IMG/VR virus record: IMGVR_UViG_2548876700_000016
Source: a virus
Lineage: Duplodnaviria > Heunggongvirae > Uroviricota > Caudoviricetes
Reading direction: 5' to 3' (one strand)
DNA length: 6,933 nt
In this document: in pieces, positions 1 through 6,933 of the stretch
How the letters are laid out: each line of letters begins with the position of its first letter
Position numbering within the stretch: position 1 is the first letter of the stretch
Position numbers and translations under genes: made by a program
Notes under the pieces: generated by a model
Told to the model about the DNA's origin: nothing
Databases searched by the model: none
The model's input: the letters and a program-made list of their open reading frames with translations, nothing else

Positions 1-183
1 CCGGAACTGATAAACAGGCATCACGCAATCATATTCGTAACCTTCACGGCGGTAAGTTACGCACCGTCCCGCCACGCCCTTAATCATTACCGTGCCGCCG
101 TACTGGTCGCGGTAAATATCACCGCGCGTAAATTTAGGGTGAGTGTTGCCACTGGCAGTTAAGCCAGAATATTTAAGTTTCAT
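1..183 (-). CDS. Hypothetical small protein, 5' part only (61 codons open to the window edge; 3' end lies beyond position 1)
   Basis: ATG at 183-181 on the minus strand with GGAGA about 9 nt upstream; starts 5 nt after the stop of the 189-422 gene; no stop codon through to the window edge. N-terminus reads MKLKYSGLTASGNTHPKFTRGDIYRDQYGG... Not on the ORF track because it is truncated. Confidence 0.4.
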   Translation of the reverse strand, partial: MKLKYSGLTASGNTHPKFTRGDIYRDQYGGTVMIKGVAGRCVTYRREGYEYDCVMPVYQFR

Positions 184-188
184 TATTT

Positions 189-422
189 TTATTCTCCGGT
201 GTGCTGTTCGTTATATCTGTCGTGCAATGTCTCTATTTCCTGCAACTCATTTATTACAGGCTCAAGAAGCGTTATTAATGATGTAATAATCCGCGTTTTT
301 TTTGCATTACGTTCATTATCGCCAAAGGATTCAAGGCACATCCGCAATATTTCGTACATACCTTCAGCGTAAGCAAGGGCACTAAATGCGCGGTCTATTG
401 TTTCAAGATAAATATCACGCAT
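189..422 (-). CDS. Hypothetical small protein (77 aa)
   Basis: ORF-track ORF. The upstream gene's stop (TAA, 426-424) is 1 nt from this ATG (422-420), and a GGGGA Shine-Dalgarno lies inside the upstream gene's 3' end: classic translational coupling. No recognisable family. Confidence 0.5.
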   Translation of the reverse strand: MRDIYLETIDRAFSALAYAEGMYEILRMCLESFGDNERNAKKTRIITSLITLLEPVINELQEIETLHDRYNEQHTGE

Positions 423-423
423 A

Positions 424-645
424 TTAATCCCCGTCCGTTGTTTTTCTTAAAACAGCTTCTGTCACGAAATCAGCATAGTTAGCGGCAATATCAAGAATAT
501 TTAGCCCTGTACCTCTGTGCTCATCAGTGCAAAGAAAGAAAAAAGCCACCCGCATAATTTCAGATATTGACGAAAGCGCATCAGCCGCATCATCAGGAAC
601 GCCGGAAAATTCTTGTTTCAGGGAATTAAAACGATCATCACGCAT
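424..645 (-). CDS. Hypothetical small protein (73 aa)
   Basis: ORF-track ORF. ATG at 645-643 preceded by GGGAGGGGGGG with about 7 nt spacing; its start overlaps the 3' end of the upstream 618-863 gene by 28 nt in another frame. No recognisable family. Confidence 0.5.
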   Translation of the reverse strand: MRDDRFNSLKQEFSGVPDDAADALSSISEIMRVAFFFLCTDEHRGTGLNILDIAANYADFVTEAVLRKTTDGD

Positions 646-863
646 AACCCCCCCTCCCCATTTTCACAATCAGCAACAAGAATATTTTTAGCGTCATTCA
701 GCGACCGCGTGGCGGTGTATCGGATGCATTCCAGGGCGAACAATGTGTATTCTTCCCGTTCTTCCTTTTGTGCAAGCCCTGCTGTGCATTCAATATCAAT
801 AAGCGCATGCATCAGCGTAGTGAGCGCGGCGGCGGCTGCGTCCGGCGTGGTTTTATTGTGCAT
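618..863 (-). CDS. Hypothetical small protein (81 aa from the internal Met; the track ORF extends to 893)
   Basis: ATG at 863-861 with GGGGGA 5 nt upstream; this start overlaps the last codons of the 853-1320 gene by 8 nt. The same stop/SD/ATG arrangement is repeated at 1313-1320 for the paralogous upstream gene. The first Met of the track ORF (893) has no SD. Confidence 0.35.
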   Translation of the reverse strand: MHNKTTPDAAAAALTTLMHALIDIECTAGLAQKEEREEYTLFALECIRYTATRSLNDAKNILVADCENGEGGLCVMIVLIP

Positions 864-1320
864 AGGTTTCCCCCTGACGAATACGGGCGACAAAAATCAG
901 ATGTGCGTGCGGCAGCTGGGCGCGGGCTTCGCGTTCTGTTGCTGCCGTGACGGTAAAGAGTGAGGTTTGTTTTTCCTGGCACTGCATAAAGCGCCAGACA
1001 AAATAAGGGCGTGCGGATACAGCCATGTGAAAGGCTCCCAGATGAATTTTAAGGAGTCTCGCTACTACGCTGTCAAACATGGTGGCGAGACGTAACAGGG
1101 TTGACAGACTGGTCATCTGGAAACCAGCGAGCACAAAGGCTCCCCCGTTACGCCCCGCCATAATGCGGGTATGGGTAGGTTTACGGACACAAAAAAACCG
1201 CTTATCGGATGTGGGCGGCTGTCCGCCAGATGTATTCAGGCTGTCAAACCCGGTCGCCATGTGGGCGACGGGGGAAGCATACAGCCCCGTGATAATTTTT
1301 TGCAAGCGGTTTTTACGCAT
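853..1320 (-). CDS. Hypothetical protein (155 aa) whose C-terminal 57 aa are paralogous to the 67-aa protein at 1313-1516; may alternatively be expressed as a standalone 57-aa protein from the internal ATG at 1026
   Basis: Continuous ORF. ATG at 1320-1318 overlaps the upstream gene's stop by 8 nt with a GGGG SD. The internal ATG at 1026-1024 has its own GGGAG SD about 8 nt upstream. The C-terminal segment ...YFVWRFMQ...ATEREARAQ...LIFVARIRQG aligns with ...YIWRFIAL...ATSEQEARQQ...VFAARIRQG of the 1313-1516 protein, with synonymous codon differences (cgc/cgt, gcc/gca) that support this frame. Confidence 0.45.
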   Translation of the reverse strand: MRKNRLQKIITGLYASPVAHMATGFDSLNTSGGQPPTSDKRFFCVRKPTHTRIMAGRNGGAFVLAGFQMTSLSTLLRLATMFDSVVARLLKIHLGAFHMAVSARPYFVWRFMQCQEKQTSLFTVTAATEREARAQLPHAHLIFVARIRQGETYAQ

Positions 1321-1516
1321 GATGTGACCCCTGACGAATACGGGCAGCGAATACCATCACGCAGCCAGCCGGAGATTGCTGGCGTGCTTCCTGTTCGCTG
1401 GTGGCCTCAATGGTAATCACGCGCGGTTGTGCCGTGCTCAGGGCGATAAAACGCCAGATGTATTTATTCAGGTTGTGCGAGTCCCGCCCTTGCGGGTGTG
1501 TGGTATGATTTCTCAT
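1313..1516 (-). CDS. Hypothetical small protein (67 aa), first gene of the minus-strand small-gene operon
   Basis: ATG at 1516-1514 with GAGGT 4 nt upstream. It is the C-terminal 67 codons of the 354-aa track ORF. Paralogous to the C-terminus of the 853-1320 protein. Sits directly downstream of the divergent control region. Confidence 0.55.
   Translation of the reverse strand: MRNHTTHPQGRDSHNLNKYIWRFIALSTAQPRVITIEATSEQEARQQSPAGCVMVFAARIRQGSHHA
1501..1509 (+). promoter_or_regulatory. Candidate extended -10 promoter element (TGgTATGAT) on the plus strand
   Basis: Sequence tggtatgat fits the extended -10 consensus TGnTATAAT with one mismatch. It lies about 45 nt upstream of the terminator hairpin at 1553-1597 and inside the first codons of the minus-strand gene. 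No convincing -35, which is common for extended -10 promoters. Confidence 0.3.
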
Positions 1517-1552
1517 AGCTACCTCGATACGCTTTCTATCGTTGGTGGTTAG

Positions 1553-1597
1553 AAGCCCTGCGAGTGGTAACGACACTTGCGGGGCTTTGCTTTTTAC
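1553..1597 (+). terminator. Rho-independent terminator-like hairpin, plus-strand specific
   Basis: AAGCCCTGCGAGTG (1553-1566) pairs with CACTTGCGGGGCTT (1574-1587): 14 bp with two G-U wobbles that would be A-C mismatches in the minus-strand RNA. 7-nt loop, followed by TGCTTTTTA. Confidence 0.5.
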
Positions 1598-1612
1598 TGT
1601 ACCTACTGATAT

Positions 1613-1656
1613 TGTACGTACGTAACAGCAATGATAATAGGAGTTACGTACGTACA
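1613..1656. promoter_or_regulatory. Perfect 14-bp inverted repeat, candidate operator for the Arc-like repressor
   Basis: TGTACGTACGTAAC (1613-1626) and GTTACGTACGTACA (1643-1656), separated by 16 bp. The spacer contains the AGGAG Shine-Dalgarno (1639-1643) and the right arm abuts the ATG at 1656. A candidate minus-strand promoter (TACAAT / TTATCA) overlaps the arms. Confidence 0.55.
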
Positions 1657-1847
1657 TGTCAACATTAAAGCGCGATAAATCGCCACGCGGTGAGGGATGG
1701 TCTCCAACCTTCCAAATCAGAATCAGTAAAGAGCTACGCCAACAAGTAAATGAGGCGGCAACTTCTGACGGTCTAACCCTTGGTAACTGGTTTAAAGAAT
1801 TAGCTAGGGCAGAACTAAAGCGGCGCGGCATAGAGCCAAAAGGTTGA
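1656..1847 (+). CDS. Arc/Mnt-family ribbon-helix-helix DNA-binding protein (63 aa)
   Basis: PTFQIRISKELRQQVNEAATSDGLTLGNWFKELARAELKRRG aligns position by position with the P22 Arc core PQFNLRWPREVLDLVRKVAEENGRSVNSEIYQRVMESFKKEG (beta-strand F-x-L/I-R, then two helices). AGGAG SD at 1639-1643, 12 nt from the ATG. Confidence 0.75.
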   Translation: MSTLKRDKSPRGEGWSPTFQIRISKELRQQVNEAATSDGLTLGNWFKELARAELKRRGIEPKG

Positions 1848-1868
1848 ATTTCAGAAGGAGATAAAATA

Positions 1869-2021
1869 ATGAACTGGCTGTTACATACCCTCCCAGGTCG
1901 CATTCTCATTGCACTAATTATTTTATGGATTTTGTACCAATTCGGTTTTTTCGATTCGCTTTGGAAGCCTGACTGTTCCGTTAACCCTGGCGATGTACTG
2001 AAAGGCTGTAAAAATGGCTGA
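1869..2021 (+). CDS. Small single-pass membrane peptide (50 aa), below the ORF-track size cutoff
   Basis: AAGGAG (1855-1860) 8 nt upstream of ATG at 1869. Translates to MNWLLHTLPGRILIALIILWILYQFGFFDSLWKPDCSVNPGDVLKGCKNG, with a hydrophobic helix ILIALIILWILYQFGFF and a short tail with two Cys. Stop TGA at 2019-2021. Starts 21 nt after the Arc-like gene's stop. Confidence 0.55.
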   Translation: MNWLLHTLPGRILIALIILWILYQFGFFDSLWKPDCSVNPGDVLKGCKNG

Positions 2022-2052
2022 TCAGGGTTACTCCCTGTAATGCCTTTAACTG

Positions 2053-2080
2053 GCCCTCTTAAAGAGGGTTGGTTATCTTC
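2053..2080 (+). terminator. Weak terminator-like hairpin downstream of the RHH/membrane-peptide bicistron
   Basis: CCCTC (2054-2058) / GAGGG (2064-2068) with loop TTAAA, followed by a T-rich but interrupted tract TTGGTTATCTT. Confidence 0.3.
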
Positions 2081-2330
2081 GCAGCTCTCTACGTTTTTCG
2101 TCGGAACCTCTGAACCTAAGCAGTGTTGATGTTCAGGAGAACCCGAATACTGTTCGTGTTCGTTGCTCGCCAATTCTCGCGTTTCGCGATAATCAAAATG
2201 ATTCAATGGGTTGAGATGTCCGTACGTTAAACGTACGCGGTTAATTTGTACGTGCGAATTTCGTCGGCTCAAATTCTGCGCAACCCTGATTGAGTTATGC
2301 AAATAGCACGCGGCTAACTCACAAGGATTT

Positions 2331-2362
2331 GAGCGCCCCCAAACGGGGGAGCGCAAAATTTT
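2331..2362. terminator. GC-rich hairpin between the convergent operons, possible terminator for either strand
   Basis: CCCCC (2336-2340) / GGGGG (2345-2349) with loop AAAC, extended by 2-3 flanking base pairs with one mismatch, followed by AAAATTTT. Lies 15-45 nt downstream of the Rha-like stop on the minus strand. Neither strand has a clean U-run immediately after the stem. Confidence 0.3.
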
Positions 2363-2376
2363 AGGCATAAGACGCA

Positions 2377-3087
2377 TCAGCGAATCTCCAACACTGACGA
2401 TGAAGTGATCAGGCTGGCGAACGCATCCATACGGCGGGCAACCTCACGCACCGCATCGCCTGGACTCATGTCATTACGCACCGCCTCATTAAAGGCCGCC
2501 TGTTCGATTTTCTGCATCACTACCAACAGCCCCAATTGCTGTTCGTCTGCGGTACCGCGTTCACCATCAGACAAACCAGCCACGCGGTTTTCAGCGCGGG
2601 CCAGATTGATGTAATGGTGCCGTTGTGCGCCCAGAGCTTTTAATCTGTCGCGGCTTTCGTGATAGCCAGGCAGGTACTCACGGCGGATAGGTTCTGCGGC
2701 GCGGCGCTTAGTGAATGCCTTCGTAACATCCAGTTTGAACTGGTTAATACGCTCAGGATCACGCCCTCGGGTGATACGCAGCAGATAGTCGAGCTGCGGC
2801 TCATTCAGCAGATAACTAATCTCAGGACGCCCACGCTTTCGGCCGGATTTTCCCGATTTCAAATCGGTTAATTCCTTGAGTGACTGACGAGGCAGTGATC
2901 CCAGCTCGCGCAATCTGCTCTGGTGCGATTTAATCGTCGCGCTTAGGCTTTCATGTTGTATTCCGGCTCGCTCTGAAATAACGCGGGAATCGATACGCGG
3001 CTCCGATTTGTGATTAATTAAAATATCGCTCTGGCTGGCTTCAGGGTGAGCGAATCCCTGCCCGTTGAGGGCATTAATCTTTTTCAT
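2377..3087 (-). CDS. Rha-family phage regulatory protein (236 aa)
   Basis: N-terminal region IDSRVISERAGIQHESLSATIKSHQSRLRELG matches the Rha-domain signature D-S-R-x-I-x-E-x-x-G-x-x-H-x-x-L-x-x-x-I as I recall it. Starts 20 nt after the alpA-like stop, so probably co-transcribed. C-terminal region not recognised. Confidence 0.6.
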   Translation of the reverse strand: MKKINALNGQGFAHPEASQSDILINHKSEPRIDSRVISERAGIQHESLSATIKSHQSRLRELGSLPRQSLKELTDLKSGKSGRKRGRPEISYLLNEPQLDYLLRITRGRDPERINQFKLDVTKAFTKRRAAEPIRREYLPGYHESRDRLKALGAQRHHYINLARAENRVAGLSDGERGTADEQQLGLLVVMQKIEQAAFNEAVRNDMSPGDAVREVARRMDAFASLITSSSVLEIR

Positions 3088-3107
3088 CTCTGATTACCTG
3101 TAGTTAA

Positions 3108-3392
3108 TTAAGCAGATTTGCGGCTGTATGGGTTATTGACGTTCTCTACTACAGGCGGATTACGAACCCACCAGAGCACATCAGAAAGAAGCCAGGCACA
3201 GCTATTGCGGCCGAAGTGGCAGCGTGGCGGAAATCGTCCTTGCTGCTCCATTTTCCAACGGCTGGAACGGGAAAGGCTGGTGATCTCGCTACATTCTTCT
3301 TCACGGATTCGACGATCGAACTTAAAGCCGTACTCTTCTAAAAGGGTGCGGCGCTGTTCAGGATTAGGCGGGGTAAAAATGGGGTTTTGCAT
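3108..3392 (-). CDS. alpA: AlpA-family (Xis/MerR-like HTH) prophage transcriptional regulator (94 aa from the internal Met; the track ORF extends to 3434)
   Basis: EITSLSRSSRWKMEQQGRFPPRCHFGRNSCAWLLSDVLWWV follows the AlpA pattern (T-G/S-L-S-R-S-T-I-Y...G-x-F-P-x-P...W...E-V/I-x-x-W). GGAGG lies 4 nt upstream of the ATG at 3392-3390; the first Met of the track ORF (3434) has no SD. Confidence 0.75.
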   Translation of the reverse strand: MQNPIFTPPNPEQRRTLLEEYGFKFDRRIREEECSEITSLSRSSRWKMEQQGRFPPRCHFGRNSCAWLLSDVLWWVRNPPVVENVNNPYSRKSA

Positions 3393-3472
3393 GTTGCCTC
3401 CACTGTTTCTAAGTTTGTGGAGGCTAGTTTGCAACCGTTAACACTGGATAGAAATACAGTTGTAAGCATAGA

Positions 3473-3509
3473 AGCATACTGATAATGCTTATAAATATAT
3501 CAGTATGCT
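3473..3509. promoter_or_regulatory. Perfect 12-bp inverted repeat between the orphan gene and alpA; candidate operator or terminator
   Basis: AGCATACTGATA (3473-3484) and TATCAGTATGCT (3498-3509), separated by a 13-nt AT-rich spacer. Lies 22-58 nt downstream of the 309-aa gene's stop and about 80 nt upstream of the alpA start. Confidence 0.45.
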
Positions 3510-3530
3510 ATAGGAGTATATGAGTAAGGC

Positions 3531-4460
3531 TTACTGTGTTCTTTCGCTCGGCCTCTTATGCGCATTGTTTAATATTGCTGCTATTTTCGTTTCTGTTTTT
3601 ATTGGCAATTCACCATTGATGAACCAGTCAGGTCTGGCGATCAACTCACGGGCCCAGGCAGAATAGTTAATAGTTCCATCTGTTTTTCTGCAACTCTCAT
3701 TAAAAGCATTTTGCTGCTCTTCTTTGAAGCGCATGGCTACCATTAAAATTTGCTCTCGATTTCTTGCATGTCTTTCAGCAGAATGATGAACAATTTCATT
3801 GCCATTCATCTTATGAGGTTCTACAAATTCAATATCATCTGTCAGCGTGAAATAATCGCCACCACAGTCAAGGAGCCGCCTTATATCCTGAGCAGTAATC
3901 CACAAATCGTTTATAGAGATTTTATTTTTGAATACTTGATCGTCTTCTTCATCATAATCGCTATCTTCGCCAACCATTAAAAGCTGTACGGCGGGATTAT
4001 CAGTTTCTGGATGGCACGGGGTTAATTCAAAACCACTTAGGGCATACTCTCCAAAATTTTGTAGCTCTTCTAATCCGCTCCAAAGACGCCACAACCCATA
4101 AGCCTTACCAATAGAACTGAAACACCCATTTTCTGTATCTTGACCAAATAAAGGCACGTGAATCGTTTCTTCCGTTTCCTCATTGTAATCGCATCTGTAG
4201 AGATGAAGCCTGGAAAATTCAGTAATATTGTTTCCCATCATGGATGTGGTGGAGTTTGCCTTTCTGGTATCGAACCAGTCGCATGCAGATTTGCTGTCAG
4301 TTCTCATATATAAAACAGCGCGAGCATCAAACAAATTTAGACATAAAGATATTTTTTTAGTAACACCTAAATTAATCAGGTCGCTAATCTCACAACCCAG
4401 CAATCTCGACGCACGTTCAATATTGCAGTATTGAAAAGGTATTTTAATGTCGTTAGCCAT
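3531..4460 (-). CDS. Hypothetical protein (309 aa), AT-rich orphan cargo gene of unknown function
   Basis: ORF-track ORF with GAGGG SD 7 nt upstream of ATG at 4460-4458. Visibly more AT-rich than the flanking int and alpA/rha genes. N-terminal stretch IERASRLLGCEISDLINLG looks HTH-like; central acidic stretch EDSDYDEEDD. No P-loop, nuclease or other catalytic motif recognised by eye. Confidence 0.7.
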   Translation of the reverse strand: MANDIKIPFQYCNIERASRLLGCEISDLINLGVTKKISLCLNLFDARAVLYMRTDSKSACDWFDTRKANSTTSMMGNNITEFSRLHLYRCDYNEETEETIHVPLFGQDTENGCFSSIGKAYGLWRLWSGLEELQNFGEYALSGFELTPCHPETDNPAVQLLMVGEDSDYDEEDDQVFKNKISINDLWITAQDIRRLLDCGGDYFTLTDDIEFVEPHKMNGNEIVHHSAERHARNREQILMVAMRFKEEQQNAFNESCRKTDGTINYSAWARELIARPDWFINGELPIKTETKIAAILNNAHKRPSERTQ

Positions 4461-4497
4461 TGCGCTGCCCTCAACGCCCCTAAATTAATTTGCGAGC

Positions 4498-4522
4498 CAA
4501 GCGGGTAGGGTTTCCCGCTTTT
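4498..4522. other. Short hairpin in the int/orphan intergenic region, weak terminator candidate
   Basis: AAGCGGG (4499-4505) / CCCGCTT (4514-4520) with an 8-nt loop. The plus-strand tail is TTTTCGG; the minus-strand tail has no T-run. Confidence 0.25.
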
Positions 4523-4553
4523 CGGTTGGCCGACCTAGGCCCGCAATATCAGT

Positions 4554-5780
4554 TTAATCTCTATTCATTACAGGTAACAGAACCACATTTTGATGATTAC
4601 CCGCAAGAAGTTCTAATCGTTCATACCACTTATTCAGCGCGTCCAGCTTCTCAGGCAAGTACAGACTACGGTTATAAATCGCCATAACTCCCGGCATTGA
4701 GTGCCCCAACAACTGTTCGACAACGTGTGGTGCTATACCCATATTATTCATATGCGTTGCTAAAGTTCGTCTTAGATCGTGCAGTGTCCATGGTTCAGAA
4801 TGCCCCAGCTTTTTATAAACGCTACGGCCCCACTGGCTTACCGCTTCACTGCCTTTAACCGACCCAAGCAAAAGACCGGATAGTTTCGTTTCATCATGCA
4901 GTATTTCAATGAATTTGCGCATGGCATCCGGCACAGGTCTTACAATCTTCTCGCCGCCCTTGCTGTGCTCTTTGGGAACTGTCCAGACCCAGGCATCCAT
5001 ATCCCATTCACTCCACTCTGATAGTCTGGCCTCCTGCGTTCGGCACCCAAACACCATTAAGATTGTCAGTAGCCTGGTGTAGTAAGGCATGAAGCAAGTG
5101 CTAGAGGTAATGGCAGTCCATAAATCGCCAGCCTCTTTATCGTTTAATACCCGATCTTTTTTTGCCTGTTTTTTACCGACATCTGGAATTGTTAAATCTT
5201 CAAGCGCGGTACTCACAGCATAGCGACGAACCCGGCAGAATTTCAGGGCTTGTTTGCACATCTGGAACACATAACCTGCGGCGACTGGCGTTTTCTTTTT
5301 CATCCTGTCAAAGCAGTCAAGCCAGTATCGGGTTTCGCAGTCAGCGAGCGCCATTTTTCCAATGTAAGGGTAAATATGTTTGCGTAGCTCCGCTTTATGC
5401 CGCTCAACATTCGCGCGATTCTCTTCTGCATATTCACGTATCCAGTATTCGATAGCTTCCTGCACCGTGACCGGTTTAAGCGTTTCCTGAGTAGTTAGCG
5501 CCAACTGGTGCTTTGGGTCTTTACCTGAGGCCAGCCACTGGCGGCATTTATCACGCGAGGAACGGGCCTCTTTGAGGCTCATATCCGGGTATCGTCCCAG
5601 AGTAAGACGATGCAACTTCTGCCCGTCGAGTCGGTAAGTAAACACCCAGCTAATACCACCAGCTTTCGTTACCTTGGCACTCAGCCCGGCACCATCAGCA
5701 TAGAACTCAATCTTACTGGCCGGGATGCCATGTAATCCCTTTAACTTCCTGTCGCTCAGTTTGTTAAGTTCGCCAGCCAT
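4554..5780 (-). CDS. int: Tyrosine recombinase/integrase, P4-type with an N-terminal arm-binding domain (408 aa from Met at 5780; the track ORF extends to 5864)
   Basis: C-terminal catalytic signature HDLRRT ... LLGHS ... AIYNRS (R, H-x-x-R, H, Y). N-terminal pattern L-x-D-x-K...DG-x-GL...W...YR...G-K...LG-x-YP-x-x-SL-x-x-AR typical of P4/CP4-type integrases. The Mets at 5864 and 5840 lack an SD; the Met at 5780 has a weak GGTGG. Confidence 0.85.
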   Translation of the reverse strand: MAGELNKLSDRKLKGLHGIPASKIEFYADGAGLSAKVTKAGGISWVFTYRLDGQKLHRLTLGRYPDMSLKEARSSRDKCRQWLASGKDPKHQLALTTQETLKPVTVQEAIEYWIREYAEENRANVERHKAELRKHIYPYIGKMALADCETRYWLDCFDRMKKKTPVAAGYVFQMCKQALKFCRVRRYAVSTALEDLTIPDVGKKQAKKDRVLNDKEAGDLWTAITSSTCFMPYYTRLLTILMVFGCRTQEARLSEWSEWDMDAWVWTVPKEHSKGGEKIVRPVPDAMRKFIEILHDETKLSGLLLGSVKGSEAVSQWGRSVYKKLGHSEPWTLHDLRRTLATHMNNMGIAPHVVEQLLGHSMPGVMAIYNRSLYLPEKLDALNKWYERLELLAGNHQNVVLLPVMNRD

Positions 5781-5797
5781 AGACCACCAGCCCAAAG

Positions 5798-5819
5798 TGT
5801 TTATACAAATGTTTATACA
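5798..5819. repeat. Tandem direct repeat TGTTTATACA x2 (12-bp period) upstream of the int start
   Basis: tgtttatacaaa / tgtttatacag at 5798-5819, about 20 nt upstream of the int ATG in an AT-rich junction-proximal region. The position fits integrase arm-type or IHF-like sites; this is inference. Confidence 0.3.
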
Positions 5820-5947
5820 GAATTGCTTGCATAATAGCATAAACAAAGAAAAACACTGGAACAATATACAGGCATAAATTTAAATAAGCCATTGATTATT
5901 ATATAAATACTAAAATCACCTAAAAGCATGAAAACAGCTAATCTGAC

Positions 5948-5964
5948 AGTACGGCATGAACTAA
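5948..5964 (+). other. fis: Displaced 3'-terminal fragment of fis (..YGMN-stop): candidate att core and right boundary of the integrated element
   Basis: TAC GGC ATG AAC TAA at 5950-5964 encodes YGMN-stop, the C-terminus of Fis as I recall it. An in-frame TGA at 5944-5946 and unrelated upstream sequence show that the rest of fis is not here. Downstream is the native-looking terminator and yhdJ. Confidence 0.5.
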
Positions 5965-5990
5965 TTCAGGTTAGCTAATTGCTTGATTAA

Positions 5991-6026
5991 AAGGCGCTAC
6001 TCGGCATGGGGAAGCGCCTTTTTTAT
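5991..6026 (+). terminator. Rho-independent terminator (the native fis terminator in its chromosomal context)
   Basis: AAGGCGCT (5991-5998) / AGCGCCTT (6013-6020), 8-bp perfect stem with a 14-nt loop, followed by TTTTTTAT. Confidence 0.7.
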
Positions 6027-6048
6027 AGGTGTCACAAAGGGAGTGACC

Positions 6049-6933
6049 ATGAGAACAGGATGTGAACCGACCCGGTTTGGTAATGAAGCTAAGACCATTA
6101 TTCACGGTGATGCCCTTGCCGAACTTAAAAAGCTACCTACTGAAAGCGTCGATCTGATCTTTGCCGACCCACCGTATAACATCGGTAAAAATTTTGATGG
6201 TCTGATCGAAGCCTGGAAAGAAGATCTGTTTATCGACTGGCTGTTAGAAGTGATTGCAGAGTGCCACCGCGTTCTGAAAAAGCAGGGCAGCATGTACATC
6301 ATGAACAGTACGGAAAACATGCCCTTTATCGATCTCCAGTGCCGCAAGCTTTTTACCATCAAAAGTCGCATCGTCTGGTCATATGACAGTTCTGGAGTGC
6401 AGGCGAAAAAACACTACGGCTCCATGTACGAACCCATCCTGATGATGGTGAAAGACGCAAAGAACTACACATTCAACGGTGATGCTATTCTGGTAGAAGC
6501 CAAAACCGGATCGCAGCGCGCGTTGATCGATTATCGCAAAAATCCTCCACAGCCTTACAATCATCAAAAAGTACCGGGTAACGTCTGGGATTTTCCGCGC
6601 GTGCGTTATTTGATGGATGAATATGAAAACCACCCGACGCAAAAACCGGAAGCCTTACTGAAACGCATTATTCTCGCCTCTTCCAACCCAGGCGATATCG
6701 TTCTCGACCCGTTTGCTGGTAGCTTTACTACCGGTGCCGTAGCCATCGCCAGCGGACGAAAATTCATTGGTATTGAGATCAACAGCGAGTACATCAAAAT
6801 GGGGCTTCGACGGCTGGATGTCGCGTCGCATTACTCTGCGGAAGAACTGGCGAAAGTGAAAAAAAGAAAGACCGGCAACCTGTCAAAACGAAGCCGGTTA
6901 AGCGAAGTTGACCCCGATCTCATTACAAAGTAA
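6049..6933 (+). CDS. yhdJ: DNA N6-adenine methyltransferase YhdJ (294 aa)
   Basis: Recognised as YhdJ from MRTGCEPTRFGNEAKTIIHGDALAELKK... and the DPPY motif (LIFADPPYNIG). AAGGGAG SD 7 nt upstream of ATG at 6049. The track ORF (5983-6933) adds an N-terminal extension that runs through the upstream terminator and is not credible. Confidence 0.9.
   Translation: MRTGCEPTRFGNEAKTIIHGDALAELKKLPTESVDLIFADPPYNIGKNFDGLIEAWKEDLFIDWLLEVIAECHRVLKKQGSMYIMNSTENMPFIDLQCRKLFTIKSRIVWSYDSSGVQAKKHYGSMYEPILMMVKDAKNYTFNGDAILVEAKTGSQRALIDYRKNPPQPYNHQKVPGNVWDFPRVRYLMDEYENHPTQKPEALLKRIILASSNPGDIVLDPFAGSFTTGAVAIASGRKFIGIEINSEYIKMGLRRLDVASHYSAEELAKVKKRKTGNLSKRSRLSEVDPDLITK

Follow-up and report, generated by a model that had tools for sequence, protein, structure and literature searches.

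The window, by which we mean the whole 6,933-nucleotide stretch of DNA analysed here, carries the integrase end of a mobile element on one side of position 5950, and on the other the final codons of fis, the fis terminator and yhdJ. The features on which the argument draws are as follows.

about 853-1020, minus strand: icd-like ORF downstream of the C4 antisense RNA and its targets
1078-1165, minus strand: C4 antisense RNA (Rfam RF01695, 72.6 bits)
1233-1282, minus strand: a1/b1 targets of the C4 RNA (Rfam RF03163)
1613-1656, no strand assigned: perfect 14-nt inverted repeat TGTACGTACGTAAC / GTTACGTACGTACA with a 16-nt spacer, ending at the start codon of a 63-aa Arc/HicB-like gene
3108-3392, minus strand: alpA-family regulator / excisionase gene (PF05930, E = 4e-10, match 3111-3392; PHROG 2790, E = 3e-38)
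3531-4460, minus strand: 309-aa ORF between int and alpA, with PHROG 7144 (unknown function) as its sole match
4477-4545, minus strand: int-alpA RNA motif (Rfam RF02996), directly 3' of int, full length, 61.2 bits against a gathering score of 35.8
4554-5780, minus strand: integrase gene, a 408-aa tyrosine recombinase with an N-terminal arm-DNA-binding domain (Pfam, PHROG and structure matches)
5781-5949, no strand assigned: element-side arm of attR, equal to the int-proximal arm of attP, with no similarity to fis or to empty-site chromosomes
5799-5819, plus strand: doubled motif GTTTATACA-aat-GTTTATACA, two exact copies 12 bp apart, containing TTTATACA-N4-TTTATACA at 5800-5819
5854-5871, plus strand: conserved arm block CACTGGAACAATATACAG, at least 93% kept in 15 attR sequences from distant genera
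5885-5897, minus strand: match (AATCAATGGCTTA) to the IHF consensus WATCAANNNNTTR, its TTGATT part kept across genera
5950-5962, plus strand: att core TACGGCATGAACT, the last 13 nt of fis through the first base of the stop codon
5962-6026, plus strand: native fis stop codon (5962-5964), 3' UTR and rho-independent terminator, equal to the empty-site sequence (L002)
6049-6933, plus strand: yhdJ, adenine-specific DNA methyltransferase and the normal chromosomal neighbour of fis (NCBIfam PRK11524 equivalog, residues 1-294)

Element genes in the window

Both domains of the integrase score above the Pfam cut-offs (Arm-DNA-bind_3, PF13356, E = 6e-19; Phage_integrase, PF00589, E = 2e-17). The protein also matches the PHROG 1 integrases (E = 2e-70), its N-terminal domain matches structures 3ju0 and 3jtz of CP4-like integrases, and the strings GCRTQEAR, HDLRRT, LLGH and AIYNRS are legible in the translation. 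As predicted from its sequence, the integrase is of the P4/CP4 type, with an arm-binding domain followed by a C-terminal catalytic domain that holds the R...HxxR...Y residues. An identical protein adjoins yhdJ in many E. coli assemblies, and integrases 96.5% identical to it lie beside fis cores in K. pneumoniae ATCC 13883 and E. hormaechei. A promoter scan found no consensus in 5781-5949, where the int promoter presumably lies.

The alpA-family gene matches a PHROG annotated as excisionase and transcriptional regulator, and the int-alpA RNA motif follows the stop codon of int and precedes the 309-aa ORF. That ORF has no match in Pfam, NCBIfam or PADLOC, and four further ORFs of the window have none in PADLOC. 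Since related islands carry different genes in the slot between int and alpA (DUF6387 and other hypothetical proteins), we regard it as a variable cargo position, and the 309-aa ORF is possibly an anti-phage gene.

To the left of alpA we identified a Rha-like regulator, the small Arc/HicB-like gene, the C4 antisense RNA with its targets, the icd-like gene and several small ORFs. The C4 RNA, its targets and the icd-like ORF form a P1/P7-type immunity cassette within the satellite, and a called 155-aa ORF that overlaps the RNA and its targets (853-1320) is probably over-extended. More GTACGT-containing copies occur at 2217-2256; judged by sequence, these copies and the inverted repeat at 1613-1656 are likely operators of a divergent regulatory region. 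A 354-aa ORF called at 1313-2377 on the minus strand was rejected as spurious, as it covers an intergenic region in which small genes of opposite orientation lie. The ORFs of the window are all intact.

The fis tail and the chromosomal breakpoint

The five codons TAC GGC ATG AAC TAA (TACGGCATGAACTAA) at 5950-5964 are the final 15 nt of fis. When the complete fis gene (297 nt) was compared with the window by short-word BLAST, fis nt 283-297 at this position was the sole match, and the base immediately 5' of 5950 was not identical to fis in that search. From base 5950 onward the fis 3' UTR, terminator and yhdJ are exactly those of uninterrupted E. coli chromosomes, with 539 consecutive bases identical to an O157:H7 chromosome downstream from the breakpoint. 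When 5,426 complete E. coli genomes were compared with the window, over 5,000 gave a chromosomal match whose first base is 5950; it overlies annotated fis and yhdJ, and a yhdJ annotation is present in all matched genomes.

These results bear out what the original prediction had described, namely terminal fis codons separated from the rest of the gene, an in-frame TGA (5944-5946) and unrelated sequence just upstream of them, and an intact terminator and yhdJ following in chromosomal order. It had proposed alignment to an E. coli K-12 fis-yhdJ reference and had named normal fis sequence upstream as a finding that would overturn it; alignment to uninterrupted chromosomes places the breakpoint at 5950 and gives a core of 13 nt, and fis similarity ends at 5950.

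The native terminator (5989-6026) consists of a hairpin at 5989-6022 and a U run; it has a folding energy of -18.8 kcal/mol (z = -4.1) and is identical to that of the empty site. A simple terminator scan missed this hairpin because of the loop-length limit of the scan. The ORF that follows encodes full-length YhdJ, scoring 587 bits against the PRK11524 cut-off of 292. In O157:H7 strain PV15-279 (L002, 1600-3306) yhdJ is interrupted by IS1203; the copy in the window is intact.

Both junctions in related complete genomes

In 19 complete E. coli genomes a related int lies beside yhdJ; over the junction the nucleotide identity is 94-97.6%, and six of these genomes were examined. All six have an intact fis followed by an island of 15.1-16.4 kb and then yhdJ, and the core TACGGCATGAAC (12-13 nt) is present at both ends of every island. 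The second copy of the core at the far end, for which the original prediction had suggested looking, is thus found throughout this set, as is the regenerated fis terminus that it had expected there, with an identical Fis protein (WP_000462905.1) in all six genomes. The islands encode terminase, HNH, connectors, portal, protease, capsid, primase, icd, alpA and int. Two related loci hold left-end cargo genes whose annotation names are unexpected for a tail-less satellite, namely a "tail assembly protein" in L019 (3008-3607) and a "tail length tape measure protein" of about 765 aa in LR881103.1 (2036-4333).

At the fis-side junction of all six relatives, a short 3' UTR and a terminator hairpin borne by the element stand directly after the core. 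The element-borne stop codon is TGA at four loci and TAA at two. Two of the element-borne hairpins were folded, giving -17.5 and -20.5 kcal/mol against the -18.8 kcal/mol of the native one; the hairpin of L021 is wholly different in sequence, and L022 has about 70 bp in common with the native sequence. Because the element supplies its own stop codon and hairpin after the core, fis keeps a terminator, and the change to fis in these genomes amounts to a swap of about 65 nt of 3' UTR sequence. The suggestion that the element separates fis from its terminator and may disturb termination is therefore not supported by the relatives, where the two folded replacements are of similar strength to the native hairpin.

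Two loci have mosaic attachment sites. In L019, attR (18427-18470) contains element-type bases (TGA, GTGTTTG) within an otherwise chromosomal fis 3' UTR, and in L022 attL (4475-4545) is E. coli-like for about 70 bp. Such mosaics suggest that crossover or gene conversion occasionally extends past the 13-bp core.

The same element in other assemblies

A draft contig (L005, GCA_000446095.2) ends in sequence that agrees with the window at 100% identity, and part of a complete chromosome (L003, CP182026.1) agrees with it at 99.64%. Beyond the stretch covered by the window, L003 continues with DUF4222, an AAA_25 replication protein, SSB, PerC, and an HK97-type capsid, prohead protease and portal (PF05065, PF04586 and PF04860, respectively); the 10 kb of L003 analysed end within the portal gene. 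The source contig of the window ends inside the element. None of the complete RefSeq E. coli genomes covers at least 80% of window positions 1-5949. The neighbourhoods of the 77-aa protein, the outermost complete one of the window, taken with 10-kb flanks, are only those of other PICIs at unrelated chromosomal sites. The left module of the window (small ORFs, DUF4222 and the AAA_25 gene) is 90-98% identical in PICIs with different integrases at other sites (L013-L018), and draft assemblies probably break inside the element because this module is common to PICIs elsewhere.

The attachment-site arm and candidate binding sites

The arm at 5781-5949 is kept beside related integrases in 14 Enterobacterales species and is contiguous with the far arm in contigs of the attP form. 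On this int-side arm the doubled TTTATACA motif has the same offsets from the core, -150/-138, in the window and at all six related E. coli loci. A second, co-oriented TTTATACA pair occupies the far arm of the six loci at +83/+95 (+82/+94 in L021). In L001, for example, the doubled motifs are at 4178-4197 and 20202-20221. Three records of the attP form also contain the doubled motif.

We scanned one genome per species for the motif and obtained 14 representatives, from Proteus, Providencia, Xenorhabdus, Rahnella, Pectobacterium, Brenneria, Erwinia, Klebsiella, Enterobacter, Pluralibacter and an unclassified Enterobacteriaceae MAG. The spacing from motif to core is 162 nt in 13 of the 14 matches, and each representative has an integrase alongside that is 68-96.5% identical to that of the window; as the scan was conditioned on the motif itself, these figures describe breadth and not frequency. 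We regard the doubled TTTATACA motif as probably a pair of candidate arm-type integrase binding sites, judging from its position and conservation.

An alignment of attR sequences identified CACTGGAACAATATACAG, TTGATT and AGCATGA as conserved blocks outside the search pattern. The IHF consensus is matched twice in the window against 0.42 expected, each time within the att region: in the element arm (5885-5897, minus strand) and in the native fis 3' UTR (5976-5988, minus strand). This weakly suggests a putative IHF site. A CAGT/ACTG inverted repeat around the core was considered as core-type Int sites and rejected, its left half not being kept across genera.

The excised form

A search pattern that requires both arms around the core can match only attP or a tandem pair of elements. 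It matches two IMG/VR viral contigs (L038 and L039); in the larger, of 15.5 kb, the att site falls between the terL side and int, as in a circular permutation of the integrated map. An attP also lies at 4850-5102 of GenBank LR881103.1 (L040), a phage record of 16,548 bp described as from an "induced prophage". The integrase of LR881103.1 is 96.5% identical to that of the window, and the identity is 96-98% across the attP-form records. Judged by these records, close relatives of the element excise by recombination at this core.

Interpretation and alternatives

We consider it very probable that at 5781-6048 the window holds the attR junction of a phage satellite that has integrated here, belongs to the published "fis PICI" group and is of the capsid-forming (cfPICI) type. 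In the proposed mechanism, the circular element would carry an attP in which a 13-bp core equal to the end of fis is flanked by two arms, each with a doubled TTTATACA motif, and the tyrosine integrase would recombine this core with the same 13 bp at the chromosomal fis 3' end, the crossover presumably falling within the core. Integration would yield attL on the fis side, where the body of fis is joined to the stop codon, short 3' UTR and terminator of the element and fis stays intact and terminated, and attR on the int side, in the window, where the int-proximal arm is joined to the displaced fis tail, the native terminator and yhdJ. Upon induction, Int and the AlpA-family protein would reverse integration, and the excised element of about 16 kb would then replicate and be packaged. 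The comparisons above are our basis for inferring where in the core crossover falls, which roles the arm motifs and AlpA play, and what state the far end has in this genome.

Other readings of the locus account for less of the evidence. Were the fis tail a chance match, or the scar of a local duplication or deletion that involved no site-specific integration, its brevity would be the main point in favour, as a 15-base match taken alone reaches only E = 0.002 in the short-word BLAST. Yet identity extends over 539 bases, through the fis 3' UTR and terminator into yhdJ, the same breakpoint recurs in thousands of genomes with an integrase gene adjoining it here, the core bounds both ends of the islands of relatives, and attP forms exist. 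We give this account almost no credence, and it is effectively refuted already. A decayed, immobile remnant, in which attR, int and the regulators survive, the far end or late genes are lost, and neither excision nor transfer occurs, would be consistent with a source contig that stops inside the element, short of its far end. Against such decay, all ORFs of the window are intact, the 99.64% identical copy in a complete chromosome runs on through replication genes, capsid, protease and portal, and all six complete relatives have both ends; moreover, the contig breaks in sequence 90-98% identical to that of other PICIs elsewhere in E. coli genomes, a typical cause of assembly breaks. We therefore judge a remnant to be improbable.

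Another reading would make the element neither PICI nor cfPICI but a small temperate prophage or P4-like satellite with its att site in fis. The P4/CP4-like architecture of the integrase is compatible with it, as are the C4-type antisense RNA and icd-like immunity elements, which occur in P1, P7 and P4, and the genes annotated as tail-related in some relatives. However, neither the window nor L003 nor the annotated relatives contain psu, delta, sid, epsilon or alpha-type P4 genes; specifically, the psu-delta-sid operon, epsilon and the alpha primase have no Pfam or PHROG match in the window and are not among the gene calls of L003. The relatives, at 15-16.5 kb, have a full head and packaging module and no annotated tail or lysis module, the tail-related gene names in L019 and LR881103.1 aside. 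This assignment is highly improbable in our estimation, more so than decay. The original prediction of a P4-type-integrase element in the fis 3' end, with its near junction beside int, thus stands in its account of the integration; a P4-like satellite class does not, and we assign the element to the cfPICIs instead.

Comparison with known systems

P4 and the CP4-57-type islands have in common with the present element an arm-binding integrase architecture, an AlpA-family regulator and regeneration of the 3' end of the target. They differ in using tRNA or tmRNA genes as targets, where this element uses fis. P4 also takes over whole P2 capsids and carries psu-delta-sid and an alpha primase, genes that are absent here.

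The cfPICI family and its core genes were defined by de Sousa et al. (2023, PMC10085698), and near-identical cfPICIs have been described across genera (bioRxiv 10.1101/2025.02.11.637232). The components in the SatelliteFinder definition (PMC10085698) are found here as an integrase, regulator and replicase module (int and alpA in the window, AAA_25 in L003) and as the element's own capsid, prohead protease and portal (L003). A head-tail adaptor/connector, HNH, terS and terL are annotated in all six complete relatives. The gene order agrees with that of cfPICIs, namely int, accessory gene, alpA, regulators, replication, capsid, protease, portal, connectors, HNH, terS and terL, with the order in this element itself read from int through portal (window and L003) and the later genes taken from the six complete relatives. 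Size (15-16.5 kb) and the near-identity of integrases across genera, here 96.5% with Klebsiella and Enterobacter, are likewise in common. The replication module differs, consisting of the AAA_25 protein, SSB and PerC in L003 and of primase modules in the six complete relatives.

According to PMC10111431, the integrases of helper-embedded PICIs (e.g. 11capE) are close relatives of those of fis PICIs, and the attPs of fis PICIs lack the doubled motif that helper-embedded PICIs carry, TGTATTGC, at 81 and 132 bp from the centre of attP. We found no report in the literature of the doubled TTTATACA motif in fis PICI arms. The two motifs have in common a 12-bp period, a TGTAT start on the int-sense strand and a place on both attP arms, at 81/132 bp in helper-embedded PICIs and at about 87/146 bp from the core centre here. 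They differ in the half-site, which on the int-sense strand is TGTATTGC in helper-embedded PICIs and TGTATAAAC here, and the elements differ in target, helper-embedded PICIs integrating into prophage late genes and this one into fis. By analogy, TTTATACA may play in the arms of the fis clade the part that the doubled motif plays in helper-embedded PICIs. Separately, the swap of about 65 nt of fis 3' UTR and the mostly TAA-to-TGA change of stop codon might measurably alter the stability, termination efficiency or post-transcriptional control of fis mRNA. We regard these further-reaching readings as speculative and unlikely. If they were true, carriage of the satellite would retune host physiology through the global regulator fis, and the counterpart motif would point to co-divergence of integrase arm domains and arm sites.

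The closest system is the fis PICI group itself. Mageeney, Tran and Williams (2023, NAR Genom Bioinform 5:lqad036; PMC10111431) catalogued 2,642 and then 3,565 "fis" genomic islands and classed them as PICIs, with TACGGCATGAACTAA as the consensus identity block at the fis terminus and yhdJ as the downstream gene. They cite earlier experiments in which the Klebsiella island Kpn47.16.fis excised and replicated after mitomycin C, with crossover within TACGGCATGAACTGATAC. In the portion of their supplement available to us, the attL sequences of E. coli fis PICIs match those found here (e.g. Eco254.16.fis and L021), and this exact strain does not appear among the members in that portion. The identity block TACGGCATGAACT(AA) is present at the attR of the window (5950-5964) and at both junctions in the six relatives, and the integration zone contains an AlpA-family gene (PF05930, E = 4e-10). 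With the same fis 3'-terminal target, an identity block beginning TACGGCATGAACT, a terminator and then yhdJ, AlpA and a size of about 16 kb, fis PICIs show no substantive difference from this element, and both the element class and its attachment site were already described in 2023. The value of the present analysis lies in annotation, assigning int, alpA and the att arm to the satellite and the fis tail, terminator and yhdJ to the chromosome, and the junction is a routine case of a published, abundant element class.
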